The position numbers were made by a program, and so were the translations under genes. DNA of 64,000 nucleotides from Candidatus Poribacteria bacterium (GTDB lineage: Bacteria; Poribacteria; WGA-4E; PCPOR2b). The notes under the pieces are model-generated. The model was not told where the DNA came from. It searched no databases and saw only the letters and a program-made list of their open reading frames with translations. This document shows positions 21,492 to 35,783 of the stretch, in pieces (the first letter of the stretch is position 1; every line of letters starts with the position of its first letter). The stretch lies in assembly GCA_965208325.1 (NCBI GenBank), contig OZ242326.1, positions 1,408,001 to 1,472,000 on the forward strand, written 5' to 3'.

Positions 21492-24400
21492 TTAGTCTAC
21501 AATCAAAGTCTGAACCTTAGCCTCCAGGTCATGTTCCCAACTGCGCCCGGCGATTTCTCCCGCCGCGTTGATCAGGATGAACGGATGCCACCCGACAGCA
21601 TATCGTTCAAATGTCTCGCCTTTCGCGCCGTCGACCGTAGCTGGGCGGTCTAGTCCAATCGAGCATGACAGCAACTGTTCTGTAATGTGCCGTTTGACCG
21701 CCTCAATCTCGGAGGCGGCGGGACAGACGGCGACGCACACGAGGCCTTTTTCACCGTAAACCTCGTGCAAAATATTCAACAGGCGAATCCATTGTATATG
21801 ATTGGAACGGTTCAAATCCCAGAAATGTAGAACTATCGTCTTGCCTTCCAACTCTCCGATGGATACGGGTGAACCGGACAGCCATTTTGCAACCGCCAAC
21901 TCCGGCGCCGTTTTGTTCAGCAATGTATTGAAGCGATCTTCGGCGGACGCGGCGTATGACCGCTGCAACTGCTGCTCCGGGGTCGGCTCTGGTTTATTTT
22001 CGGACGGCGTTAGAGTTAAAACTAAATCGCGTTGATTCACCGCGATACTCTCAAAAATCTTGTGGTTACGATCAGCGCTGACAGAAATTGACACCATTTG
22101 GTCTTTGATGTGCTTCATTTCAAATTCGCCTAGCCCATTGGTACTAGTGCCGGTGTAGAAGTAACCGGAGACATCTTCTTCGGCTTCAACTCTTACTGAT
22201 GCCTGATTAATCGGCTTGCCATTGGCGTCCACGACTTTCCCAGCGAGGTAACCGTCCCCCTCGATCAACACTAGGTCGTGTCGCTGGTTGGCTTTTAGCA
22301 TCTTGAATCTATGGCGCGCGAACGCTGGGTGATGGGTTTGCAGATTAATGACGACAGCCATTAGTAGATTATCAAACCGAAAATTGCCATTTTCGTCGGT
22401 ATAGGTGTCCCAGCCTTGCGATTGATAGTGTGTATATACCCGTGCACCGTGTACCGGTTGACCTGAAGTATTGGTTATGCGTCCTTCAAGGTAGAACTGA
22501 CCGACCTCTGGCAACAAAATGAGATCCGCGATTTGGGTCATTTCCGCCGTTGCGGTAAATGTCTCGGTTGCCGTCGTCCAATACCCTTCTGCATTCGCAG
22601 AGATTGTGTACTCGTCGCCGACAATGAGTTCAATTTCCCGGTATCGTCCATCGCCATCTGTCACCGCGACGGTCGAAACTAACCCTATTTCCGACTGACG
22701 ATCGAAGTACAGCAGATTTATGTTCACTGACGGAATGGGTTCACCGGCGCGGTCGACTACTCGCCCGGCGACTTTTACGCGCTCATACGGTTCAATCAGA
22801 ATCTCAACCGACGCGTCCGGCTGGACTTCAACCTCCGCCGTTCCGCGCAATTCCAGCTCGCTATGTTCCGCTTTCAAGGCGAGTTTCTGCCCAATTCGTA
22901 ATCCGCGAACCGTAAATTCGCCCTGTTCATCCGACGTGTCGCACGCACTTAAAAAATTGCGCCCTTTTGCGATTATGACACCGGAGACCGGTTCCCCAGC
23001 TTTCGTCAATACTCGACCAGACAATTCCAATCCTTTGGAGAACTGAAAATCTACGACGACAGTTTCGCCCTCAACGACATCAACATACCGCGTAACCTGT
23101 CCGACATTCTGATAGTCTTGCGGGGCATAGGTTGAAACCAGCACGCGGCCAGGCGCAGCGCGGAAACTATAGATGCCGAATTCGTCAGTTGTTGAAACGT
23201 GATCTATCGGCCCAAACTCCGGACCCGGGCGGGCGGTGTCGTGAAACCTAATATGATGGTTCGCAACCGGTTCCTTTGTGTCCTGATCGGTCACCCGCCC
23301 AGAAATATGGCCGCCCCGAACCAGGGTCAAATTTATATTAGACATAATTTGTCCCTCAGCGACCTTAAAAAATTCGTTGGAGGCAGCCGTCCACCCTTCA
23401 GGTACCTCATCAAGATAGAGGTTGTACATACCGGGGGCGATGTTCTTCAGGAGGTAATTCCCATTCTCATCGACACTTACATGTTCCGCCCCCATTCCCG
23501 CGGTCAGTGGAGAGATGCGTAGAAGTGCAATAGTGGCGTTTTTGACCGGCGCGCCGGTATCTGCATAGCTGAGCCGCCCCTCAATCCGAGCCTCACGCTC
23601 CAGCCGAAATTCGAGTCCCGATGCGCCAGGCGGCACAGGGAAACGCATCTCCTCTGCATATCCTTGCCCATGAATAACGAGGCTTGCTGTCACGTCCGGC
23701 GGTAGCCTGCGGAGAACAAACTCGCCGTTCGTATCAGTATTGGTGGGGGGAATGATGGAAATAATGTCTAAGCCAAGGAATAAGTCCCATAGTATTGGGT
23801 TGCTAGAAAATGTGGCGTTACTATACAAGGATTTGATCCGTACTTCCGCATTCTGGATCGGAACGCCCGCCGTGTTTAGAACTCTTCCCGAAATGACCTC
23901 CTGCGTGCCGAGTTGGATTTCAACATCCATCTTGCTTTTTAGCGGGAGGTTCTGCCAACCGATTGCATGATTGGGGTGCGTGGCGACAATGGGGTGTGTG
24001 ATGACGATGTTATCCCGATCTTGCTCCCTGTCGTCGGGACGCTGGACTTCAAAGTGGAACGTGCCATCGGGTGCCGTGCGAGTGACAGTTTCGAAAGATT
24101 TGAGTTTTGACGGGTAAAAAAGTTCGGCATCCGCTACCGGCGCACCGTCACTGTCAACAACCCGGCCGGAGTAAATTAGTTTCTCGTCCTCACCCTTCGC
24201 TGCTACTGCGGGGTGTTGCGGCGTCGCATTCTTTACACCGCCATTACCTGAAACTGACCCTAGTTCAACTGACTCGCGGCTTCGCACCGTTGAACCGCGA
24301 TTGGAGACTCCCGGCGGACGCTTTCCCGACGGGGTCGGTATGCCCGCAATTAACGGACGAATTGCGATGGGAGCGGGTGTAATGAATGCGACCGGAATCG

Positions 24401-25184
24401 GCTGGCTCGTGTCTGACGGCGACAGCCCGATCTGGTTTCTTGGGGACACATTCGGCGAATCGCTTCGCTCTCCAAACAGTCCAACCAAAACACATAAAGC
24501 CATAATCAGCGAAATTAACGCTTTGCTTACTGACGTGCTACCCCACGTGAACCCCATGGTTGGAGATGGAATGTGGCGAATCTGCTCAATTAGCTGCATG
24601 AGGAATCCTCCTTTGAGTTTGCGGCTCTTTACGACTCTGCCGTAATGTTCAGACAACGCGCTGCCGAGCTGCAGCCGCGCACGACGCAACTTGCTCTTGA
24701 CAGTATTGACGGAAACACCGAAAAACTCTGAAATCTCCTTCAGCGAATAATCACCTGCATAGAACATCGACACGACGATCCGACTTTCGTCAGAGAGCTC
24801 TGACATTGCCTGCTCAAGATCTACCTGCCAATCCTGTGTTGGCACCGTGTGTTCAGGTTGAATCTGTAGCGAGTCGTCCACTGCCTGCTCCAGCGCAATC
24901 TCGTGCCGGCGTCTTCTCGTAACACGCACCAGCCAACGTTTGCATTCGTTGGACATGATTGTATACAGCCAGCTGCGGAAGAGATGCGGATGCCGCAGTT
25001 TTTGGAGATGGCGGAATGCCTTTAAAAAAACCTCTTGCGTAATGTCCTGCGAATCGGCTACGTTCCGCACTTTCTGATAGGCGTAGGTATAGACCATGTC
25101 CTGATACTTGTGTACGAGCACACCGAAGGCATCGCGATCCCCGGCGAGCGTTTGAGACACTAACTTTTCGTCGGCTGTATACAT
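21492..25184 (-). CDS. ECF sigma factor fused to a TM helix, 8 carboxypeptidase-regulatory-like repeats and a C-terminal thioredoxin-like domain (paralog 1)
   Basis: Sigma2 (GDRDAFGVLV..DITQEVFL..FRSWLYTI), sigma4 (SLKEISEFFGVSVNTVKSKLRRAR), TM ALISLIMALCVLVGLFG, 8 GRVxxxxGxPV repeats, APEL..GKTIVLHFW; ATG after AGGTGG. Confidence 0.9.
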   Translation of the reverse strand: MYTADEKLVSQTLAGDRDAFGVLVHKYQDMVYTYAYQKVRNVADSQDITQEVFLKAFRHLQKLRHPHLFRSWLYTIMSNECKRWLVRVTRRRRHEIALEQAVDDSLQIQPEHTVPTQDWQVDLEQAMSELSDESRIVVSMFYAGDYSLKEISEFFGVSVNTVKSKLRRARLQLGSALSEHYGRVVKSRKLKGGFLMQLIEQIRHIPSPTMGFTWGSTSVSKALISLIMALCVLVGLFGERSDSPNVSPRNQIGLSPSDTSQPIPVAFITPAPIAIRPLIAGIPTPSGKRPPGVSNRGSTVRSRESVELGSVSGNGGVKNATPQHPAVAAKGEDEKLIYSGRVVDSDGAPVADAELFYPSKLKSFETVTRTAPDGTFHFEVQRPDDREQDRDNIVITHPIVATHPNHAIGWQNLPLKSKMDVEIQLGTQEVISGRVLNTAGVPIQNAEVRIKSLYSNATFSSNPILWDLFLGLDIISIIPPTNTDTNGEFVLRRLPPDVTASLVIHGQGYAEEMRFPVPPGASGLEFRLEREARIEGRLSYADTGAPVKNATIALLRISPLTAGMGAEHVSVDENGNYLLKNIAPGMYNLYLDEVPEGWTAASNEFFKVAEGQIMSNINLTLVRGGHISGRVTDQDTKEPVANHHIRFHDTARPGPEFGPIDHVSTTDEFGIYSFRAAPGRVLVSTYAPQDYQNVGQVTRYVDVVEGETVVVDFQFSKGLELSGRVLTKAGEPVSGVIIAKGRNFLSACDTSDEQGEFTVRGLRIGQKLALKAEHSELELRGTAEVEVQPDASVEILIEPYERVKVAGRVVDRAGEPIPSVNINLLYFDRQSEIGLVSTVAVTDGDGRYREIELIVGDEYTISANAEGYWTTATETFTATAEMTQIADLILLPEVGQFYLEGRITNTSGQPVHGARVYTHYQSQGWDTYTDENGNFRFDNLLMAVVINLQTHHPAFARHRFKMLKANQRHDLVLIEGDGYLAGKVVDANGKPINQASVRVEAEEDVSGYFYTGTSTNGLGEFEMKHIKDQMVSISVSADRNHKIFESIAVNQRDLVLTLTPSENKPEPTPEQQLQRSYAASAEDRFNTLLNKTAPELAVAKWLSGSPVSIGELEGKTIVLHFWDLNRSNHIQWIRLLNILHEVYGEKGLVCVAVCPAASEIEAVKRHITEQLLSCSIGLDRPATVDGAKGETFERYAVGWHPFILINAAGEIAGRSWEHDLEAKVQTLIVD

Positions 25185-25234
25185 AATAACCACCTTATCC
25201 GAAAAACAAGTATGGAAGCCCTATTTGAATTACA

Positions 25235-25260
25235 TAGACACATCAAGCGAACCAGAGGTT
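25235..25260 (-). promoter_or_regulatory. Putative ECF sigma-dependent promoter (AAC-N18-GTCTA)
   Basis: Minus strand gcAACctctggttcgcttgatgtGTCTAt; the same motif and spacing occur upstream of all three ECF paralogs. Confidence 0.7.
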
Positions 25261-25289
25261 GCACCGCGTGGATAAAATAGTTGAAAAAC

Positions 25290-25418
25290 TCAAGGAATAG
25301 TACCAAAGAGATGTCTCAAACGATTGAATCCCGCTTCAATGAGAATATAAATCACGCAACCGCGACAGGGGATAGGAAGGCTGTGTTTATGGGACAACTA
25401 CATCAAAGGTGGGGCTAA
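25290..25418 (+). pseudogene. Remnant of a DUF433 3' end and DUF5615 (PIN-like toxin) 5' end
   Basis: 25290-25352 aligns without gaps to 31921-31983 (48/63 identical by hand count); ORF 25311-25418 MSQTIESRFNENINHATATG... Confidence 0.6.
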
Positions 25419-25784
25419 TAGCGGACGGAGATGAAAGACAAACCAAATTTGCGATAACTAGGCAACGGGGCAGATCCTGTCCATGGCGCAAACTCTCTTC
25501 ATGTTTAGATGGACTACACCGGAATCGTCTATTATGGACCGGCAGACTGCAATTAGATGAATTATCCTGCGGCTAATCTTGATGCCGGTAGTTTTCGAAT
25601 CGGATGAAATGGAATAATAAGGTGGGGTTTTTACCAGAGAGGTGTTTACATAGATTCAGGCCGCAAATATGCCAATTGCAGCACCGCGGCTGCAGCAGGT
25701 AGAGATACGCATTCGACCCAACCTACACCGCTGCAATTCTGATAGATTAGCGAAGCGAATCAGGATTTAGCAGTGATCGGCAAT

Positions 25785-27026
25785 TTACTTTGTTCGTGTC
25801 GTCTTCTCGGGAGTGCTGTCCTTTTCGATGATAGCAATGTGCGGCAGGCGCCACTCTATGCTTGCAGGACCCACGTCGAACCATTCACCCGATAATCCCA
25901 TCGAAACGAAATCTTCCTCGCCCCGGTCTTTATCGTGCGGTTCATGGGGCGCCCAGTTTGTGAATGTCACCGGCTCACCGTTCGCCCAAACCCATTCCCC
26001 TTCGTTCGCATAATCCGTCAGTCCAATCCAGCACCGATTTGGTCCAAAGGTTTTTGATATCCAGTCCTGCTCTGCTGCATCGTTGATTGCAACGAGATAC
26101 CCACCTTCGGCAGCGGCTTGAGTGTTGGCTTCATCCCAACTCTCGCTACTAATTCGCTTGTACGCGTGCCCATTTGCTGGATTCACCACCCACGCTGCGC
26201 CGACGCCCCGTGGTGACGTTGACACTTCCGCAGAAACTTCGACTCGACCAGTGGGACCTTCAGGCCAATTCGGAAGTCTGTCGAGCGCGAAAACCAAATC
26301 TTCTCTGTCTTCTCCTTGTTTTAGCAGGAAAGGATCTGCTGACGCCGAAAGCCTGTGATAGTTCACCGTCATTGTGTAGATTGCGGGTTCATCAACGAAG
26401 TAATTAAAATAACCGTCAGTGTCAGTCTCGTTCGAGGAACTTGAGCTACCGCTACCCGTCCCGTCGGGCGTACGGTGGTTTACGCTGACATTAATCCTCG
26501 CACTGGAAAGCGGGGTGCCATTGAGAAACACAATGCGTCCCCGAATGTAATTCCGCAATTTCACTCTGACTTCGACATTCTCAACGTGCACGTCCGGATT
26601 AATGGCGAACACGATTCCCTGCCAAGGCGAATACTCGTGCCGGTAAATGGTCAGTGTCGCCACCCTTACGGAAATGATTTCGCCGCTGGTCCCGGACGGA
26701 TGATAAAACTTGGTGGCCGGTGTTAATCGGACTTTTGCCGGCGGGATGTTTTTCATAGAAAAACGTCCCATTTCGTCAGAGTGCGATTCTGAAAGTGTGA
26801 TGAAGGTTCCTTCAACTGATTCAAGCGAAAACGGTAAAAGGGATAGCCCAAATCCCGCAACCGGATTACCTTTTAAATCAACAACACGGCCGGACAGTGT
26901 AGAAGTACTGTCCAGAGCCATACCCTGCAACGATGCGGCGAATGTAAATACCATTATCCCAACAAGTAGCCGCAGGTTCTCTCGCCTAAACGCGGCGTAT
27001 AAACACCTTAAATGTAACCAGTTCAT
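25785..27026 (-). CDS. Secreted protein with 2 carboxypeptidase-regulatory-like repeats and a C-type lectin domain
   Basis: ATG after AGGAGG; hydrophobic signal; NGHAY, SWDEA, YLVAINDAAEQDWI, WIGLTD, GEPVTFTNWAPHEP, WFD. Confidence 0.85.
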   Translation of the reverse strand: MNWLHLRCLYAAFRRENLRLLVGIMVFTFAASLQGMALDSTSTLSGRVVDLKGNPVAGFGLSLLPFSLESVEGTFITLSESHSDEMGRFSMKNIPPAKVRLTPATKFYHPSGTSGEIISVRVATLTIYRHEYSPWQGIVFAINPDVHVENVEVRVKLRNYIRGRIVFLNGTPLSSARINVSVNHRTPDGTGSGSSSSSNETDTDGYFNYFVDEPAIYTMTVNYHRLSASADPFLLKQGEDREDLVFALDRLPNWPEGPTGRVEVSAEVSTSPRGVGAAWVVNPANGHAYKRISSESWDEANTQAAAEGGYLVAINDAAEQDWISKTFGPNRCWIGLTDYANEGEWVWANGEPVTFTNWAPHEPHDKDRGEEDFVSMGLSGEWFDVGPASIEWRLPHIAIIEKDSTPEKTTRTK

Positions 27027-27264
27027 GGAAGATGCCTCCTTCGGAATGTTGAATGCGACCGAGGACGAATCCCTCTGTGAATGACCCAAATCGGTCTTTT
27101 GACGAAGCCAATTAGGGTTTGATTTCTTGACAACCCGGTTTTTTTACCGGGGAATGGCTAGACGATGGCGTTGCCGCTCACGTATCAAACAAGCTGTAAA
27201 CGCTGTTTCTAGCTGATATACGCTTAGCAATCACTTTGCGTTCAAGGCGTCAAATTATCGAGTG

Positions 27265-28728
27265 TCAACGTCGCTTTTTCCCCGGCGATTCACGTCTTTT
27301 CGTTTCGGAGTCATTACGCCCTTCAAAGGATTCATGTCGTTTTTCATTGAGATTGCTCCGGTCTTTTTTACGCTCATCATCATCATGAAGTATTTCAGGT
27401 TCATCCGGCAAATTTAGATTAGAAGTCGGGTCATCCGTATCTTCCAACGACTCCAGCAACCTATCCAACTCCTTCGCCTCGACCCCGCCGGGGAATTTCC
27501 AATCCTCAGCTTGCTTCATTTGGTTTTCCAATTCGGGTGGGACGATTGGCGCCGGGATCGGCTGTTCCAAACCCTCCAGAAATTCCGCCATCTCTAGCGA
27601 CGGTGCGGCATGGCGCGGTGCTGCCACAGGCGCGGAATCGTCCACTGCCGAGTCGGATGCGGAGGTCCAAAGTGATGAACGGGATACAGGCTTCGGTTCG
27701 GCAACGTTCGCAGGTTGCGAATCTGTTCCTGACGGAAGCACTACGTCGGACTCGGAACGGGCGATCTCCGGTCTATCATCATCAAATATGCCGGCAAAAT
27801 TCCCCCATACCTTCGCCATTCCTCGCCTCGGCGCATCAGCAGGTTTGCCGTCTGGACCGATAAAGCCAATCTTCACATGTTCGGGAAGTTTCTTTGTGAA
27901 AGGGAATGGGGTATGTAAGTACTCTTGTATAGCACCAACATCGTATGACTCGCCCACAGCAGGAAAGTGTAGCTCACCGATACTCCCGTCCGAGTTAATT
28001 TCATAGTAGGTCGTATCGGCTCTGAGCGGAAAGCGTGTCCCATCTTTGGCTCTGGCAATCGTGACAAATTTTCCTTCATTCCATTGTTGTGCGAAAGTTG
28101 GGTCTTTTAATGCTTCTTTCACATAATAGTGCGTCTCCAGAAAATGCTGAATTCTAGTTTCTTCAAACTGTGCCGACGACGTGTCCACCGGCAGCCCCAT
28201 ACGTTCTAGCACACTGTTTTTGTAATCGGCATCATTTCCAAACAGGGGTTGCTCGAAAAACTGCTGCTTTGAATGTAGCAGATTGAACCGATACATGAGG
28301 AATGAATTGTATTCCGCACCGTTCTCGATTAGCAGGCCTTTATCCAGCAACATCTGCAGGAATTCTGCACGCGGATAGGCTTGGTCGACATTTGCTAAGT
28401 CGATGCCGCTGAAATTAATCGCCTGCGACTCAACCCATGTGTCAAAATTAGTGTCATGCGCTTCCATAAGGGCTTCGACAGATTGCGGGTTTTGAAATGA
28501 GGTTGAATCGGAAATGTGACGCATTCGAGTCAACTCCTCGTCCGCCCCTTTGACGACAGCTGTCCACCAATAGTCCCGCAAATAGTTGCTTATCGCAATC
28601 TCTTCTGGTGAACCATCGCTCTGGCTAAAAACAACGTGCTGTCGATGTAACAGTGCAGCGATAACAGCCGCCGCAACAACTCCCAGACCAATCATTACAA
28701 TCTTCCACTTTGACAAGGAAACCAACAT
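27265..28728 (-). CDS. Hypothetical membrane-anchored protein
   Basis: 487-aa ORF with an RBS, N-terminal TM segment and a low-complexity acidic/charged C-terminus. Confidence 0.75.
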   Translation of the reverse strand: MLVSLSKWKIVMIGLGVVAAAVIAALLHRQHVVFSQSDGSPEEIAISNYLRDYWWTAVVKGADEELTRMRHISDSTSFQNPQSVEALMEAHDTNFDTWVESQAINFSGIDLANVDQAYPRAEFLQMLLDKGLLIENGAEYNSFLMYRFNLLHSKQQFFEQPLFGNDADYKNSVLERMGLPVDTSSAQFEETRIQHFLETHYYVKEALKDPTFAQQWNEGKFVTIARAKDGTRFPLRADTTYYEINSDGSIGELHFPAVGESYDVGAIQEYLHTPFPFTKKLPEHVKIGFIGPDGKPADAPRRGMAKVWGNFAGIFDDDRPEIARSESDVVLPSGTDSQPANVAEPKPVSRSSLWTSASDSAVDDSAPVAAPRHAAPSLEMAEFLEGLEQPIPAPIVPPELENQMKQAEDWKFPGGVEAKELDRLLESLEDTDDPTSNLNLPDEPEILHDDDERKKDRSNLNEKRHESFEGRNDSETKRRESPGKKRR

Positions 28729-28953
28729 GATAGGTGCTCCTTTCTCCTAATGCTAGATTGTTGGTGAAGATACCAAATGATTAAACCTAAACACCAACCC
28801 TTCAGGCGTTTTTTTTACTCATTCAATCTGGCTATTAGGATGGTTGTTCGTGAAAGTGTGTTTGGATTTACACATTGTAGCGCTGTGAACACTCAGTAAT
28901 TCGATCGTTAATTACCATGCGGTTATTTTTCACCGAATTGTGTAAATTTAAGG

Positions 28954-31143
28954 TTATTCGTTCTCATTGGGAGGCGGCGAGGCGAAACCTTGTCTTTCGA
29001 TGATAGCCTTCTGGGTCATCCGCCACTGTGGGCTTTCCGGTCCAACATCAAACCATTGTCCATTCGGACTGAGACCCATGAAGACGTAATCTTCTTCACC
29101 GAGCGGCGACTCGGTCGGTTCATTGGGCGCCCAGTTCGTGTAAGTAGCCGGTTCGCCGCTGGACCATCGCCATTCCCCCGCCTTTTCGATATCAGTTAGT
29201 CCAATCCAATAGGGCTCGGTACCAAAAACTTTCACCAGCCAACTCTGCTCCGAGGCGTCGTTAATCGAAACCAAGTATGCATCCTCGGTAATCGCTTTCG
29301 CTTGAGCATCTTCCCAACTTTCACAATGAATGCTTCGATAGGCGTGACCATTTTGAGGATTCATCACCCAAGCTCCATCTCGGTCCGGCGGCGCGGCGCT
29401 ATCCGGTGTTGGCTCAATGGGAATTGGCGGGCTGTCAAGCGTTATGACCAAATCATCATGCCGTTGACCGGTTTCGAGAGCAAATTGCTCCGACGTCGCC
29501 GATAAGCCTTGAAATTCAACAGCTACCGCGTAAAATCCTGGCTGAGGCGGATTCACATAGTGCACAAAGTATCCCGCATCGTCCGTGCGGGGCAATCCTC
29601 CGCTACTACCCGTGCCTTCCCCATCAAATGTACGCCATCGCACGCTAATCAGAACTTTCGCCTTGGCAAGCGGTGTGCCGTCGGTGAATACAACCTGACC
29701 CCGAATGCGCATCCGCGGTTTAACTACAATTTCAAAATTATCAATGTGTGTCCCTGGCTCAATGGTAAATGTAATGCCACCGTGAGGGGGCGGTTGCCGG
29801 GAGTCCGCATGAAAAGTCATCGCGCCAGTATCTATGGACAAAACCTCCGCGTCTACAAAATTGTCTTGGTCGTAGCTGTGCGGAGGCATGTCATCGCTTG
29901 TTACAGGATTGGGCTGTGCCATGAACTGGAGAGGCCCGGGTTTGATGCCAGAAATCGAAAACCGTCCCTCTTCGTCCGTGTCCGATTTGAACGTGTACGG
30001 CTGTGCGTCCCTCCTGAACCAATCATAACTGAACATTGGCATGATTTTGCCGTCAAATGACATCAGCGGTCCAACAGCTATGGGGAATCCCGCGATTGGA
30101 TTGCCATCTGTGTCAACCACACGGCCCGATAAGGCAATTTTATCGGAACCGCTCACCGATGCAGCAGTTGTGAATTGCGGACTCGGGGATTTGGCACCCC
30201 CAGCCACGGCAGTGGTTTCTCGGTAAACTGGCTCGGAGTTCGGCTCCACTGAGGCGCGGTTGGCGACCGCCAATGGATGCTTTCCCGACGTGGCAGGAAT
30301 ACCCGTAATTGACGGGCGTGCGGAAAACGGAGGCGAAGCAAGTAACACGACCGGGATCGGGCGGTTCGCGTCTGGCGGCGACAGTGCAGTTTGATTGCCT
30401 GCGTACGCTTTCGGTGAGCTGTCTCGTGCTCCGATAAGTCCAATCAGGATGCACAATGCCGTAATCAACGAAAATACCGTCTTGCTAACAGTTGCACTGG
30501 TCCACGTGAACCCAACTGTTGGCGGTGGGATATGGCGTACCTGCTCCATAAGTTGCATGAGGAATCCTCCTTGGAGTTTGCGGCTCTTCATGAATCGACC
30601 GTAGTGTTCAGACATCGCGGTGCCGAGTTGCTGCCGTGCTCGATGTAACTTGCCCCGGGCGGTGTTCACGGAGACGCCGAGAAATTCTGAGATTTCCTTC
30701 ATCGAACAGCCACCCATGTAGAACATCGACACCGCCACGCGATTATCGTCCGGGAGCGCAGAGATTGCACGCTCTAAGTCCACCTGCCAACCTTCTGTTG
30801 CGGCAGTGTGTGCGGGTTCAATCTGTAGGGCATCGTCTGTAGCGTCGTCCAACGCAATTTCGCGCCGGCGTGTTTCCGTGGCCCGCGCCAGCCAGCGGTT
30901 GCACTCGTTGGACATGATTGTATACAGCCAACTTCGGAACCGATGCGGGTGCCGCAGTTTGCAGAGATGCCGATATGCCCGGAGGAAAACCTCCTGCGTG
31001 ATGTCCTGCGAGTCGGCTTCGTTCCGCACCTTCTGAAAGGCATAGGTGTAGACCATGTCCTGATACTTATGCACGAGCACACCGAAGGCGTCTCGATCCC
31101 CCGCAAGGGTTTGAGACACTAAGTTTTCGTCGGGTGAATTCAT
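28954..31143 (-). CDS. ECF sigma factor fused to a TM helix, 2 carboxypeptidase-regulatory-like repeats and a C-type lectin domain (paralog 2)
   Basis: Sigma2 and sigma4 motifs as in paralog 1; TM TVFSLITALCILIGLIG; lectin YWIGLTD..TNWAPNEP..WFD; ATG after GAGGTG. Confidence 0.9.
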   Translation of the reverse strand: MNSPDENLVSQTLAGDRDAFGVLVHKYQDMVYTYAFQKVRNEADSQDITQEVFLRAYRHLCKLRHPHRFRSWLYTIMSNECNRWLARATETRRREIALDDATDDALQIEPAHTAATEGWQVDLERAISALPDDNRVAVSMFYMGGCSMKEISEFLGVSVNTARGKLHRARQQLGTAMSEHYGRFMKSRKLQGGFLMQLMEQVRHIPPPTVGFTWTSATVSKTVFSLITALCILIGLIGARDSSPKAYAGNQTALSPPDANRPIPVVLLASPPFSARPSITGIPATSGKHPLAVANRASVEPNSEPVYRETTAVAGGAKSPSPQFTTAASVSGSDKIALSGRVVDTDGNPIAGFPIAVGPLMSFDGKIMPMFSYDWFRRDAQPYTFKSDTDEEGRFSISGIKPGPLQFMAQPNPVTSDDMPPHSYDQDNFVDAEVLSIDTGAMTFHADSRQPPPHGGITFTIEPGTHIDNFEIVVKPRMRIRGQVVFTDGTPLAKAKVLISVRWRTFDGEGTGSSGGLPRTDDAGYFVHYVNPPQPGFYAVAVEFQGLSATSEQFALETGQRHDDLVITLDSPPIPIEPTPDSAAPPDRDGAWVMNPQNGHAYRSIHCESWEDAQAKAITEDAYLVSINDASEQSWLVKVFGTEPYWIGLTDIEKAGEWRWSSGEPATYTNWAPNEPTESPLGEEDYVFMGLSPNGQWFDVGPESPQWRMTQKAIIERQGFASPPPNENE

Positions 31144-31206
31144 AGCACACACCTCAACCGAAATGATACACCACAACCCCGCAACAGCCCAGACAAAACT
31201 ACTTAT

Positions 31207-31232
31207 TAGACCCGCTGCGCGGATAAAAAGTT
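31207..31232 (-). promoter_or_regulatory. Putative ECF sigma-dependent promoter (AAC-N18-GTCTA)
   Basis: Minus strand atAACtttttatccgcgcagcggGTCTAa. Confidence 0.7.
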
Positions 31233-31631
31233 ATGCCTTAGCGAAAAAAATTCGGGTGTGGCTGCACCTATCGCAGCGGGTCACCTTGCCCCAACGCACC
31301 GATGATAAGCGAGGCGTCTTGCCCTACATTCCTTATGAATCATCGAATCACGGCGCGGATAAAGAGTTACTCCGCAAAAAAATATTTCCGAGCGTGTTCC
31401 ATCTTCAATCCAAACAATAAACAGTTGAAAACCTCGGCTGCCGCGTGTAAAATGAATAGGACCAATCATTGATTCCACGCACGATTAAGGTCTAATGTGA
31501 TCGGCAAATTACGATAGCATCGCAGTAATTATTTTACTCCAAGAAACTCTAAAGGAGTTGAAAAGAAATTAAACAACCTCATCCAAATTAGACCCACACC
31601 ACCCAGAATGGTTGACATCAGGAGGTTTAAA

Positions 31632-31958
31632 ATGGGAAAAATCAAACCGCATATTGAAATCACACCCGGAATTTGCGGCGGTAAACCTCGCATCGCCGGA
31701 CACCGGATTCGGGTGCAAGACATCGTGATATTGCACGATAAGATGGGCAAAGACCCATATGAGATTGCCAATGACTATCCTTCCATTACATTGGCCGATG
31801 TCTATGCCGCACTGGTTTATTATTTGGACAACCTAGAAGAAATTCGCCAAGACATTGTAGAGTCGGAGAGATTAGAGGATGAGATGAGTGCCAAGACCCG
31901 TTCCCCACTGATGCAGAAAATCAAGGAATGGAATCAAAATCATGCCTCAAACGATTAA
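31632..31958 (+). CDS. DUF433 domain protein (putative antitoxin)
   Basis: IEITPGICGGKPRIAGHRIRVQDIV...EIANDYPSITLADVYAALVYY; ATG after AGGAGG. Confidence 0.9.
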   Translation: MGKIKPHIEITPGICGGKPRIAGHRIRVQDIVILHDKMGKDPYEIANDYPSITLADVYAALVYYLDNLEEIRQDIVESERLEDEMSAKTRSPLMQKIKEWNQNHASND

Positions 31959-32022
31959 ATTCCGCCACGATGAGGATGTTAATGCGGGGAGTCAAAGAAG
32001 ATTGTGGGTGTCGTTTACCTAG
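31942..32022 (+). pseudogene. Truncated DUF5615 (PIN-like toxin) remnant
   Basis: Overlaps the DUF433 stop; MPQTIKFRHDEDVNAG resembles the (I/L)xFxLDE N-terminus of the usual DUF433 partner; stops after 26 codons. Confidence 0.55.
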
Positions 32023-32093
32023 ACAAGAAACTAGAATTGAAAAAGATGGTAGAATTGCCTTTTAATCCGTTTTGGAATTGATTGATGGACAGG

Positions 32094-35000
32094 TCAATCC
32101 GCAAGCAGCGTTTGAATCTGAGCCTCGAGATCATGCCCCGAAGCACGCCCGGCAATCTCTCCCGCAGCGTTAATTAGGAGGAACGGATATCGCCCGATGG
32201 CGTATTGATCAGATGTCTCGCCTTTCGCGCCGACGACCGCTGTTGGGCGGTCTAAGCCGACTGAGTACGACATCGACTGTTCCGCGATGCGTCGTTCGAC
32301 CCTCTCGCCCATTTCTGTAGCCGGACAAATTGCGAGGCAGACAATCCCTTTTTCTCCATACGCCTCCTGCAAGAGATTCAATAGCCGTACCCATTGGACA
32401 CGGTCGTCGACGTAATTTAAATCCCAGAAATACACGATAATGGTCTTTCCTTTCAACTGTCCGATGGATGCGGGCGGACCGGACAGCCACTCTGCAACCG
32501 CCAAATCGGGTGCAGGTTGGCCCACCAAGGATTTGAATCGTTCGTGAGCTGCTTCGTAATATGACCATTGCGCCTCTTGCTGTGCTTGCTGCTCTGGAGC
32601 TGTTTCGGGTCGCGGTTCGTTGGGCGTCAGTGTCAAGACCAGATCACGCTGATTCACCGCGATACGGTCAAAACTTTTGTAATCCTGATCGGTACGGATT
32701 GCGATTGACACGAACGGGTCATTGATATGCTTTAGCTCAAACGCGCCCTGTGAGTTGGTGTAAACGGCATGAAATAGTTGACCGGTAGTGTAATCTTCTT
32801 GGGGTTCTACCGTCACGCTCACGTTCTCAATCGGGCTGCCTTTTGTGTCCACGACTTTCCCAGCGATATAACCGACCGCTTTGACTAGTACCAGGTCGTG
32901 CCGCTGGTTGGTTTTCAGAATCCTAAATGTATGGAATGCGTACTCCGGGTGGTTAATATGCAGTTGCATGACGACAGCCATGGAAAGATTGTTTAACCGA
33001 TAATCGCCGCTGTCGTCAGTTTGTGTCATCCAGTGTTGCGACCGGTGGTTTGTTTCGAGGTATGCGCCGCCGACCGGCTCCCCAGTATTGTCGGTAACGC
33101 GTCCCTCTATGAAATACGGGTCGGTCGGAGCTGGCAGCAGGATGAGATCCGATACTTGCGTCATCTGCGAATCAGGGGTAAACATTCCGGTTTCGGCTGG
33201 CAAATATCCGTCTGCGTCCGCACGTATGACATACTCATCTCCCACGATTAATTCAATATCCCGGAAGCGTCCACCACCATCTGTCACCGTGACTGTCGAA
33301 CCGAGCCTTGGGTCATCCTGCCCGTCCCACTGGTGCATTAGAAAAACATTTACCGACGGGATGGGTTCGCCGCGGCGGTTAAGCACACGCCCGGAGACCT
33401 TTACTCGATCGTAACGTTCCATCTGGATTTCAACCGATGCACCTGGCTGCACTTCAACCTCGGCCTTCCCGCGTAATCCCAATTTGCTGTGTTCCGCTTT
33501 GAGGACGAGTTTACGTCCGGCCTCCAGTCCAGCCACGGTGAATTCACCCTGTTCGTCAGTTTTGTTGCCGTACTCCCTGAACCAATCTGACACGTCGGTA
33601 ATATTCGTAATTTTCGCCCCTGAGACAGGTTTACCCGCCGATGTCAAAGCTCGGCCGCGCAGTTCAATCCCTTTCGAGAACTGAAAATCAGCCGTGACCG
33701 TCTCAGATTCGACGACAACCACCTGTTTACTAACTAGTCGAATACCCCCCAGATAACCATTCGGTGCACTGGTGTAGACAAGGGCACTACCAGGTGCGGC
33801 ACGGAGGCGATAGACGCCGGTTTCATCTGTGTGCGTCCCGTGAACCGATGCTTGGGATTGCGGCCGAGCGGCGTCGTGAAAGCTGATATGGTGGTTTGCG
33901 ATGGGATCGCCTGTGTCTCGGTCGGTCACGCGTCCGGTGATAAACCCACCCTGTACCAAGATTAGGTCTACCCCAGATACGGTTTGACCCTCTACGACCA
34001 CAATGTGTTCTTTTGCTACTGCTGTCCACCCGTCAGGTCCCTCATGAAGAAAGAGGTTGTACGTACCGGGAGCGATGTTTTTCAGAAGGTATTTCCCGTT
34101 TGCATCAGTATTTGTTCGCCCCCATCCGTCCGTAGGATGGATACCCTCAAGCAAGACCGCCGCGTTTTTGACAGGCTCGCCGGTACCTGCGAAGCTGAGG
34201 TTTCCCTCAACCCTGCCCTCGCGCTTCAGTCGAAACTCTAGCCCCATTGTACCGACCGCCACACTGAAATGCAGTTCCATTGCATATCCTGGTCCCTGGG
34301 TCACAAGATTCGTTGTCGCACCTAACGGAAGTCCGCGGAGCACAAACTCCCCGTCCGCGTTCGTTTTAGCGGGTGAAATGGGCATAGCGTCGATTCCCAA
34401 CCCTACTCCGTGTTCTCCCGTTGTCAAGTCGACAGTGACCAAGTATTGAATGCGCGCCTCCGCGTTTTCAATCGGCTCGCCTGCTTCATTCAGAATTTTG
34501 CCTGAGATAATCGCAGGCGCTCCGAGTTGAATCTCAACATCAGACGTGCTCTCGGGTTGGAGCTCCTGCCAACCGATTGCATGATTGGGGTGCATTGCGA
34601 TTATGTGCACACGATCCCGTTTTTTGGGTTCGGGACGAAGAAACTCAAAACTGAACGCCCCATCCGCCCCCGTACGGGTGACAGACTTGGACGGTTTGAG
34701 CCTCATTGAGTAAAACACCTCGGCATCTGCTACCGGCGCGCCGCCGCTGTCAACGACCCGACCGGAGTAGACAAGTTTTTCGCCCTCGTTTCCCGCTGCA
34801 GTTGCCGCGAGTTTCGGCACGGTATTCTTCCCACCGCGGTTCGTCGAACTCAATCTTATGTCATTTGATTGGGTGATTTGCCGTGTGGGTGCGCGGTTGG
34901 CGGTAGCCAGCGGGTGCTTTCCCGAAGGGGTTGGAATACCTGAAACCGAGGTACTCGCTGCGTATTGATCCGGTGTGTAAAACGCCGCCTCAATTGGCCA

Positions 35001-35783
35001 TCGGGTCGCATCTGACCGCGTCGGCCAAAGCTGGTTTCCTGACAACTCTGTTGATGTGTGGATTCGTCCTCCAATCAATCCAATTAAGACGCACAATGCC
35101 GTAATTAGCGAAAATAGAGTTTTGCTCACCGTTGTGCTGCTCCAAGTGAAAGCCATAGCTGGTGTTGGGATGCGGCGAATTTGCTCCGTTAACTGCATGA
35201 GAAACCCTCCTTTGAGTGTGTGGCTCTTCAAGTATCTGCCGTATCGTACAGACATCGCGCTGCCGAGTTGCTGGCGCGCCCTATACAACTTACCCTTTAC
35301 GGTGTTCGCGGAGACACCGAGAAATTCCGAGATTTCTTTCAGCGAGCATTCGCCCATATAAAACATCGCCACCGCCACCCGATTATCATCGGAGAGCGCA
35401 GAGATTGCCTGTTCAAGGTCAATCTCCCAGCCCGGTGTGGGGACAGTGTGCGCGGGTTCAACCTGCAGGGCATCGTCCGCAGCGTCCTCTAGCGCAATTT
35501 CACGCTGCCGTTTTTTGGATACCCGTTTCAGCCATCGGTTGCACTCGTTCGCCATGATTGTATACAGCCAACTTCGGAACCGGTGCGGATGCCGCAGTTG
35601 ATAGAGGTGACGGTACGCCCGCAGGAAGACCTCTTGGGAGATGTCCTGCGAATCGGCTTCGTTCCTCACCCTTTGGAATGCGTAGGTGTAGACCACGCCC
35701 TGGTACTTGCGCACGAGCACGCCGAATGCGTCTCGATCGCCCGCAAGAGTCTGAGACACCAATTTTTCGTCGGATGAATACAT
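32094..35783 (-). CDS. ECF sigma factor fused to a TM helix, 8 carboxypeptidase-regulatory-like repeats and a thioredoxin-like domain (paralog 3)
   Basis: Collinear with paralog 1 over its full length; TM TLFSLITALCVLIGLIG; APDL..KGKTIIVYFW. Confidence 0.9.
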   Translation of the reverse strand: MYSSDEKLVSQTLAGDRDAFGVLVRKYQGVVYTYAFQRVRNEADSQDISQEVFLRAYRHLYQLRHPHRFRSWLYTIMANECNRWLKRVSKKRQREIALEDAADDALQVEPAHTVPTPGWEIDLEQAISALSDDNRVAVAMFYMGECSLKEISEFLGVSANTVKGKLYRARQQLGSAMSVRYGRYLKSHTLKGGFLMQLTEQIRRIPTPAMAFTWSSTTVSKTLFSLITALCVLIGLIGGRIHTSTELSGNQLWPTRSDATRWPIEAAFYTPDQYAASTSVSGIPTPSGKHPLATANRAPTRQITQSNDIRLSSTNRGGKNTVPKLAATAAGNEGEKLVYSGRVVDSGGAPVADAEVFYSMRLKPSKSVTRTGADGAFSFEFLRPEPKKRDRVHIIAMHPNHAIGWQELQPESTSDVEIQLGAPAIISGKILNEAGEPIENAEARIQYLVTVDLTTGEHGVGLGIDAMPISPAKTNADGEFVLRGLPLGATTNLVTQGPGYAMELHFSVAVGTMGLEFRLKREGRVEGNLSFAGTGEPVKNAAVLLEGIHPTDGWGRTNTDANGKYLLKNIAPGTYNLFLHEGPDGWTAVAKEHIVVVEGQTVSGVDLILVQGGFITGRVTDRDTGDPIANHHISFHDAARPQSQASVHGTHTDETGVYRLRAAPGSALVYTSAPNGYLGGIRLVSKQVVVVESETVTADFQFSKGIELRGRALTSAGKPVSGAKITNITDVSDWFREYGNKTDEQGEFTVAGLEAGRKLVLKAEHSKLGLRGKAEVEVQPGASVEIQMERYDRVKVSGRVLNRRGEPIPSVNVFLMHQWDGQDDPRLGSTVTVTDGGGRFRDIELIVGDEYVIRADADGYLPAETGMFTPDSQMTQVSDLILLPAPTDPYFIEGRVTDNTGEPVGGAYLETNHRSQHWMTQTDDSGDYRLNNLSMAVVMQLHINHPEYAFHTFRILKTNQRHDLVLVKAVGYIAGKVVDTKGSPIENVSVTVEPQEDYTTGQLFHAVYTNSQGAFELKHINDPFVSIAIRTDQDYKSFDRIAVNQRDLVLTLTPNEPRPETAPEQQAQQEAQWSYYEAAHERFKSLVGQPAPDLAVAEWLSGPPASIGQLKGKTIIVYFWDLNYVDDRVQWVRLLNLLQEAYGEKGIVCLAICPATEMGERVERRIAEQSMSYSVGLDRPTAVVGAKGETSDQYAIGRYPFLLINAAGEIAGRASGHDLEAQIQTLLAD

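Follow-up and report, generated by a model that had tools for sequence, protein, structure and literature searches.

Candidate internal translation starts, conserved at the codon level, in fused ECF sigma factor genes of Candidatus Poribacteria

Does a gene that fuses an extracytoplasmic function (ECF) sigma factor to a membrane-anchored ectodomain give rise to one protein or to two? The question is raised by three tandem genes, here called A, B, and C, in a 64,000-nucleotide stretch (the window) from a Candidatus Poribacteria bacterium (assembly GCA_965208325.1, contig OZ242326.1, positions 1,408,001 to 1,472,000), a sponge symbiont. The source genome is a single contig of 4.7 Mb with 49% G+C. 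The reading frames of A–C are open over 729–1230 amino acids (aa) without a stop, and an earlier reading of the window (the original prediction) pointed to an internal ATG in each, preceded by a Shine-Dalgarno (SD) sequence, from which a second, sigma-less protein might be made. On balance, we favor the interpretation that AGGAGG-N7-ATG is a selected, functional internal initiation site that would yield a sigma-less membrane isoform, and the sequence comparisons suggest that each of the three genes probably makes this shorter, receptor-only protein in addition to the full-length one. The comparisons demonstrate the signal itself, the selection on its synonymous sites, and its generality among sigma-fusion open reading frames (ORFs).

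The placement of the signal in the original prediction is confirmed. An AGGAGG-N7-ATG lies in frame between sigma region 4 (sigma4) and the transmembrane (TM) helix in all three ECF fusion genes, where the ATG is codon 196 in each, 22 codons past the end of the Pfam Sigma70_r4_2 match and ~25 codons before the predicted TM helix. The motif encodes the peptide [K/Q]-G-G-F-L-M. The pattern AGGAGGNTTYCTCATG has exactly three matches in the window, all on the minus strand and all at these sites (Table 1); 0.01 matches are expected by chance, and three were reached in 0 of 100 shuffles.

The spacing and strength of the internal SD were compared with host usage. The 3′ end of the host 16S rRNA is CACCTCCTTT. 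Upstream of the first ATGs of ORFs of at least 150 aa, 273 of the 389 GGAGG occurrences within the last 30 nt start at −14 to −10, and the GGAGG of the internal motif, starting at −12, falls within this preferred spacing. The SD:anti-SD duplex energies of the internal sites of A, B, and C are −12.1, −11.2, and −13.5 kcal/mol, as compared to −11.3, −9.5, and −12.1 kcal/mol at the respective 5′ starts. By duplex energy the internal SD is therefore equal or slightly stronger, and the earlier claim that it is the better of the two is only partly true. The stretch around the internal site is A-rich and weakly structured: across the 72 homologous sequences described below, the mean minimum free energy of the 42-nt window centered on the site is −4.78 kcal/mol, versus a mean of −8.04 kcal/mol (standard deviation 1.86), which ranks it fifth of 238.

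Conservation among A–C alone is unremarkable. The three genes share 75–79% DNA identity over their first 240 codons, and 65 of the 147 degenerate columns with an identical amino acid carry an identical codon in all three. Within the 18-nt motif, 15 of 18 positions agree in all three copies, a score that 103 of the 1005 18-nt windows equal or exceed. The significance of the motif thus rests only on a wider comparison. A search of 61 relatives returned close homologs from two families of the order, with 51–91% amino-acid identity across 255 aa, and among 176 genomes of the phylum the gene family is restricted to 31 genomes of those two families. Junction sequences were fetched for 76 homologs and one non-homologous locus. 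In the 76 homologs the start position reads ATG in 74, GTG in one (L056), and GCG in one (L101), and the first Gly codon is GGA in 65, GGG in two, and GGC in one, with an Ala codon in the remaining eight. The GGC belongs to L101, so the sole true loss of the start is also a sequence without GGA.

For codon-level tests we retained the 72 sequences, from ~30 genomes, that match across the entire N-terminal region and contain no stops; five of the 77 were dropped, two because of stops (L084 and L099) and three because their match does not span the region (L100, L102, and L103). The 72-sequence set has a tree length of 6.86 substitutions per site and a median pairwise fourfold-site difference of 0.54. 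Within it, Gly192, the first Gly of the motif, is encoded by GGA in 62 sequences, GGG in two, and GGC in one, whereas the leading codon accounts for 34–70% in the other eight conserved Gly columns outside the junction. Across the tree the Gly192 codon undergoes three third-base changes, the lowest count among 64 conserved fourfold columns (median 13, maximum 27). Lys191 is encoded by AAA in 41 sequences and by AAG in none, whereas AAG is mostly preferred in other Lys columns. The neighboring Gly193, whose third base falls immediately beyond the GGAGG core, varies freely at that base (GGT 42, GGG 19, GGA 11; observed/expected 1.04). The spacer codons are unusually constant (TTT in 64 of 69, CTC in 63 of 71), and the start codon is ATG in 70 sequences, GTG in one, and GCG in one. 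Measured in 6-codon windows, the ratio of observed to expected synonymous variation is 0.53 at the junction versus a median of 1.03, a lower value (0.34) being seen only in the opening codons of the gene; in 15-codon windows the junction is the most constrained of 257 columns (0.69–0.71; column permutation p 0.002–0.005).

Codon usage of the source genome runs in the opposite direction. GGA makes up 23.3% of Gly codons overall versus 12.4% as the first codon of Gly-Gly, where GGC accounts for 68.6%, and AAA-GGA is found in 15 of 161 K-G-G contexts, three of them in genes A–C. The avoidance of GGA ahead of Gly within long ORFs is consistent with a general avoidance of intragenic GGAGG. Among seven more distant metagenome relatives (two of them identical contigs; ~55% protein identity), the Gly codon is GGA in six and GGG in one, and the start is ATG in six and GTG in one. 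The expectation that homologs would keep their Gly codons as GGA-GGN beyond genome codon usage is borne out, with GGA in 62 of 65 sequences of a genome group whose representative disfavors it, and the start is likewise kept as ATG or GTG in 71 of 72.

A comparable signal recurs in other sigma fusions of the source genome. AGGAGG at a distance of 5–9 nt precedes 15 of the 14,994 internal in-frame ATGs in long ORFs, a rate equal to that for out-of-frame ATGs (26 of 25,489). Six of these 15 sites fall just past the sigma4 of ECF fusion ORFs, namely those of genes A–C and of three further fusions of sigma to an unknown domain, to WD40 repeats, and, in a degraded ORF, to leucine-rich repeats (LRR). 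A Pfam sigma4 search of the genome gave 15 matches in frames longer than 400 aa, one of which was excluded because of a stop 15 codons later. All 14 remaining sigma-fusion ORFs carry, 6–29 codons past sigma4, an in-frame ATG with an SD duplex of −8.6 kcal/mol or stronger, and in eight of the 14 the duplex reaches −10.8 kcal/mol or stronger; the background frequencies in 4000 random 35-codon windows of long ORFs are 1.4% and 0.3%, respectively.

Paralogous families add information on how the SD and the start codon relate. The linker and TM region of A–C align with those of fusion families L004–L009, with a common R-K-L-x-P/G-x-F...I motif. In L004–L009 the SD and ATG (encoding L-K-K/E-E-M-x-x-M) lie 13 codons upstream of the A–C Met, and A–C have neither an SD nor an ATG at that position. 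The A–C site, being displaced by 13 codons, looks re-made rather than merely left over; the start would have either moved or arisen anew, and both routes point to selection for having an internal start. In the L005 family (32 members) an SD-forming xAG codon is used in 31 (GAG 22, GAA 0; AAG 9, AAA 0), and the ATG is kept in 31. Fusions of the L005 type are hugely expanded in one bacterial family, most of 102 genomes having at least 18 matches each and ~1,780 matches occurring across 151 genomes of the order.

Covariation was assessed in Poribacteria loci from the genome collection, comprising the best 80 of 568, one of them titled “uncultured bacterium” and 74 of them fused. A peptide of the form [KQRE][KQER]E[ED]xx follows sigma4 in 45 of the 80, and the other 35, which do not have this peptide, were left out. 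Where Met occupies the sixth position, the SD-forming codons AAG-GAG-GAA are used in 27 of 31 loci; where it does not, they are used in 4 of 14, one of these with TTG (Fisher p = 2e-4, not corrected for phylogeny). The choice of SD codons thus covaries with Met in paralogous fusions, which indicates that the SD is coupled to a start codon.

How might such a signal have come to lie inside a gene? In 13 split sigma genes of the source genome, the stop lies 9–19 codons past sigma4. A start of the next gene with an SD was found for nine of the 13, at −11 to +46 nt from the stop, and in three of the 13 split pairs (one read by eye) the partner ATG stands in the same frame, 9–15 nt past the sigma stop, so that a single base change in the stop would give the fused architecture. 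In addition, a free-standing 268-aa homolog of the C-terminal part of another fusion begins within two residues of the internal Met of that fusion. The general pattern fits descent from sigma–partner gene pairs that would have been fused via stop-codon loss. The suggestion that the site is the fossil of a sigma/anti-sigma operon therefore survives in part: an origin by stop loss fits the genome-wide pattern, but the A–C site is not at the ancestral boundary.

A number of observations weigh against internal initiation or limit the force of the comparisons. Synonymous constraint demonstrates a function at the nucleotide level and does not alone prove initiation. The homologs are not independent of one another, the 14 sigma-fusion ORFs of the source genome represent ~7 paralog groups, and the −8.6 kcal/mol threshold was chosen after the data had been seen. 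A strong SD and start within 45 codons of sigma4 occur in only 36 of the 74 fused loci, and the feature is accordingly frequent and not obligatory. In eight of the 76 homologs (RAGFLM) the first Gly codon is replaced by GCN and the SD core is thereby broken, yet the ATG, TTT, and CTC are kept; the Met and its neighbors may thus be constrained as protein or otherwise. L141 has GGG-GGA and with it a weaker SD. The original prediction had held that distant homologs keeping the GGF peptide but losing the Met would speak against it, and such variants (KGGFTC and KGGFIV) do occur in a protein-only set of homologs. Among homologs of this Met-less type, the one with DNA (L135) has GTG at the Met position, and DNA of the KGGFTC variants was not found in metagenome contigs or in the 176 genomes of the phylum. 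Homologs split by a stop at the junction, another form that the original prediction had called to look for, did not materialize: there is no clean case, with a sigma stop just before the Met, among the 20 inspected of 65 shorter homologs (140–447 aa). Those 20 have the look of truncations or frameshifts; P0054 stops right at KGGFLM, and P0039 continues for two more residues.

These exceptions bear directly on the possibility that the site is a functionless relic of a fused operon, where the SD and ATG persist through a needed K-G-G-F-L-M peptide and inherited codons. Fusion by stop loss is plausible given the three in-frame split pairs, GGF is kept in Met-less homologs, RAGFLM variants hold the Met without the SD core, and conservation among A–C by themselves is ordinary. 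We nonetheless regard a relic as unlikely. Gly192 shows the fewest synonymous changes of the 64 columns despite a genome that disfavors GGA in Gly-Gly, the third base is free in the adjacent Gly193, and it also varies in the seven Ala variants of the alignment (GCA 3, GCC 3, GCG 1). Moreover, the A–C site is not where the paralogous families have their SD and ATG, and in those paralogs SD codon choice covaries with Met. A recent duplication or gene conversion among tandem paralogs, with no selection on the motif, accounts for the tandem arrangement, the 75–79% identity, and a motif window that is no outlier among A–C, but it is contradicted by retention of the motif in 76 homologs spanning two bacterial families, as well as in metagenome relatives with ~55% protein identity. 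GGA is kept there while other synonymous sites are near half-randomised, and we consider duplication alone, a caveat of the original prediction, to be very improbable.

An SD-like pause element, slowing ribosomes past sigma for folding or TM targeting and leaving the Met incidental, would have to accommodate the 71 of 72 homologs in which an in-frame ATG or GTG stands at the distance expected of a start, and a start codon in all 14 fusion ORFs too, although Met is an uncommon residue. Loci without Met mostly lack the SD codons as well, and the same SD and ATG occur in sigma fusions without a TM helix (WD40, LRR, or a soluble domain). Pausing of ribosomes at SD-like sequences is itself disputed, which we count against this explanation. 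Its merits are that the constraint acts on nucleotides ~25 codons ahead of the TM helix and that, as RAGFLM illustrates, a Met can persist without the SD. A constant start codon at start spacing, together with the signal in TM-less fusions, favors initiation over a pause, which we judge to be quite unlikely. Two other kinds of signal were also considered at the junction. A frameshift signal was rejected, as no slippery heptamer or nearby out-of-frame stop was seen by eye in the fetched junction sequences. An internal promoter is not indicated by the 0 sigma-70-like sites found in 24300–25500 versus 1.5 in shuffles, although such a result is uninformative for the phylum.

Several individual junctions deserve mention in their own right. 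Two identical metagenome contigs (L139 and L140) contain an in-frame TAA six codons past the internal Met (KGGFIMQVMEQL*, at ~2020–2022 in L139), with the TM helix and ectodomain still encoded in that frame downstream; the contigs carry either a naturally split gene or a pseudogene. L102 (G051:C1:2163054-2164526, minus strand) pairs a sigma from the A–C family (59% identity) with an unrelated C-terminal domain, and the join reads GGAGG, 10 nt, ATG, with the peptide WRGKTIM. Three genome loci (L294, L303, and L304) represent another sigma-fusion family with AAAGGAGGTTTTATTATG or AAAGGAGATTT(T/A)...ATG ~19 codons past sigma4 and a different, apparently soluble C-terminal part downstream; their peptides are KGGFIM, KGDFIM, and KGDLM, and the SD letters are kept though the residue switches from Gly to Asp. 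The sigma–WD40 and degraded sigma–LRR ORFs stand in tandem in the source genome outside the window (G000:C1:3096227-3099238; L023 in part). Each carries GAAAGGAGGAAGAnnATG at the join, and the sigma–LRR ORF has lost most of sigma2. Finally, a sigma paralog (L199 3052-4581, minus strand; G005:C1:1584000-1592500) is interrupted six codons past its internal ATG by purC. The insert is an in-frame second purC copy, 99% identical and without the first five codons, and the end of the old sigma-fusion gene lies ~115 nt past the purC stop. This chimera was tried as a natural reporter of initiation and dropped, since the 99% identical native purC with its own AAGGAGG and ATG lies elsewhere in the genome.

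A–C are ECF sigma–TM–ectodomain proteins made as one polypeptide, and their family is specific to Poribacteria. PF04542 (Sigma70_r2) and PF08281 (Sigma70_r4_2) score above cut-off at the N-terminus of all three, PF07638 also matches, and no family of sigma region 1 or 3 is among their Pfam matches, as in ECF (group 4) sigma factors. A and C consist of sigma2, sigma4, a linker, one TM helix, eight CarboxypepD_reg-like repeats, and a thioredoxin-like end (AhpC/TSA) that scores below the Pfam cut-off, while B joins the ECF sigma and TM helix to CarboxypepD_reg and a C-type lectin domain. In each, a single ORF thus joins sigma to an extracytoplasmic domain through one TM helix. An AlphaFold2 model of residues 1–255 (41-sequence alignment, mean predicted local distance difference test score (pLDDT) 67.6) shows sigma2 and sigma4 as confident, a final sigma4 helix at 159–187, and the TM helix at 221–242. 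Residues 188–226, including a short helix at 194–203, have a pLDDT below 50. In this model the internal ATG would sit in a flexible linker at the domain boundary, between helices 159–187 and 194–203.

Table 1 Features of the sigma-fusion cluster in the window.
Feature	Coordinates	Strand	Description
Gene A	21492..25184	−	1230 aa; 5′ ATG at 25184; ECF sigma–TM–ectodomain
Gene B	28954..31143	−	729 aa; 5′ ATG at 31143; ECF sigma–TM–ectodomain
Gene C	32094..35783	−	1229 aa; 5′ ATG at 35783; architecture as gene A
Gene A internal site	24597..24612	−	AGGAGG 24612-24607, 7-nt spacer, ATG 24599-24597
Gene B internal site	30556..30571	−	AGGAGG, 7-nt spacer, ATG 30558-30556
Gene C internal site	35196..35211	−	AGGAGG, 7-nt spacer, ATG 35198-35196
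Predicted sigma-less isoform of A	21492..24599	−	1035 aa, putative; would start MQLIEQIRHIP
Predicted sigma-less isoform of B	28954..30558	−	534 aa, putative
Predicted sigma-less isoform of C	32094..35198	−	1034 aa, putative
Sigma70 region 4 of gene A	24666..24821	−	PF08281, residues 125-176 of P0001
Gene D	25785..27026	−	between B and A; own signal peptide; free-standing paralog of the B ectodomain

Two further ORFs lie within the cluster. Gene D (CarboxypepD_reg and C-type lectin) is 41% identical to the B ectodomain over ~400 aa (E 1e-96); because it carries a B-type ectodomain without sigma, this ectodomain also exists independently of a sigma factor. A 487-aa ORF at 27265–28728 (minus strand) has an N-terminal TM helix and an acidic, charged C-terminus, with no Pfam match at E up to 1e-5.

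In the mechanism that we propose, initiation at the 5′ ATG would produce a membrane-tethered sigma, a hybrid of the kind represented by IutY (discussed below), which would presumably be freed by proteolysis; the source genome encodes one RseP-like M50 peptidase and three S41 peptidases. Initiation at the internal SD would produce a type II membrane protein that lacks sigma but shares the TM helix and ectodomain of the long form; for A, this shorter product is predicted to have ~25 cytoplasmic residues followed by the TM helix and the ectodomain. The claim of two proteins per gene thus stands as to an internal-start signal selected at the codon level, with the shorter product itself predicted from that signal. 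The short isoform may tune how much receptor module there is relative to tethered sigma, serving as a co-receptor, a decoy, or a shield against the site-1 protease, much like the separate partner in split sigma/anti-sigma operons. The further idea that it works as an anti-sigma factor by direct binding finds no support: direct binding to sigma is unlikely for a tail of ~25 residues that has a pLDDT below 50 and no anti-sigma Pfam domain. The ~four-helix cytoplasmic domain of class I anti-sigma factors is not seen, residues 188–226 show no confident docking on sigma, zf-HC2 has no Pfam match in A–C, and the linker between sigma4 and the TM helix is only ~35 residues long, without a Cys/His motif. 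Docking of helix 194–203 on sigma as a mini anti-sigma domain was considered and set aside as unsupported, its pLDDT being below 50.

In evolutionary terms, a gene pair may have been fused by stop loss, after which the start would have been re-created in A–C 13 codons downstream of the site in the paralogs. A bolder and tentative extension, which we hold to be possible but doubtful, is that Poribacteria ECF fusions are systematically “operons inside one ORF”, in which a fusion and a free partner are made from a selected start that is re-created nearby when it decays. If so, the ratio of free partner to fused sigma would be the regulated quantity, and one-component ECF sigma factors of other phyla may hide a two-product logic. 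Fused ECF sigma factors are regarded as single-protein, one-component devices. Should a free partner be made, models of sigma inactivation and release would need a second, sigma-less species with the same sensor domain, and annotation would miss one protein per gene. Stop-codon loss could also create a fusion while keeping the separate product, which would make fused regulators easier to evolve.

Fused ECF sigma factors are established, among them IutY, ECF52, and ECF57 (PMC8999054; Casas-Pastor classification, PMC7826278). IutY of Pseudomonas putida (ECF243) is a hybrid sigma/anti-sigma protein whose sigma has no activity in the tethered state and is set free by Prc and RseP (PMC5411451, PMC8999054). 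A–C share with IutY a single-chain layout in which the N-terminal ECF sigma is followed by one TM segment and then an extracytoplasmic domain. IutY, however, has a FecR-type periplasmic domain and a TonB-dependent receptor, whereas A–C have CarboxypepD_reg with thioredoxin-like or C-type lectin domains; no FecR family is among their Pfam matches at E up to 0.01, and no TonB receptor is among their neighboring genes. Activation of IutY is by proteolysis, which is presumed for A–C, M50 and S41 peptidase genes being present in the source genome. ECF52 (SCO4117), ECF48, and ECF53 of Actinobacteria, and ECF57 with WD40 extensions (PMC8999054, PMC5826349), resemble A–C in their long C-terminal extensions, which include TM helices and carbohydrate-binding or repeat domains, and proteolytic activation has been proposed for them. 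Unlike A–C, in which none is found, they have a zinc-finger anti-sigma domain (zf-HC2 in the ECF52 type) downstream of sigma and ahead of the TM helix. The available text of the IutY paper (PMC5411451) contains neither “start codon” nor “translation” and so mentions no internal start, and the consulted portions of PMC8999054 and PMC5826349 describe none for ECF52, ECF48, ECF53, or ECF57. More generally, the literature searched, which covered few subscription journals, does not describe internal starts within ECF fusion genes; one hit proved unrelated, and a Fusobacterium paper that surfaced, in the text available, concerns an internal start only for mCherry and was discarded as irrelevant to ECF fusions.

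In-frame internal starts are well known from other proteins. In Escherichia coli, Ribo-RET identified them for ArcB-C and in clpB (ClpB), infB (IF2), and mrcB (PBP1B) (bioRxiv 10.1101/520783). According to the parts of that report consulted, ArcB-C offers a close parallel, in that an SD-like sequence and in-frame start lie at a domain boundary of a membrane signaling protein, a full-length and a C-terminal product result, and the site shows cross-species conservation with locally reduced synonymous variation. A–C likewise have an SD at functional spacing, an in-frame start, and conservation with reduced synonymous variation. The two differ in that ArcB-C, which Western blotting and ribosome profiling have demonstrated, is a soluble phosphotransfer domain, whereas the A–C isoform is predicted and comprises the membrane and ectodomain part. 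Internal start sites are also found in SctQ/YscQ of type III secretion and in phage endolysins (PMC4295842, PMC4443714, PMC12203907), where a fused gene gives a full-length protein and a free C-terminal piece, the latter being a separate gene in other systems, and the isoforms cooperate; these belong to protein families other than that of A–C. In-frame internal starts and fused ECF sigma factors are thus each already known, and the combination of the two, a selected internal start that recurs across sigma-fusion families, did not turn up in the literature searched.

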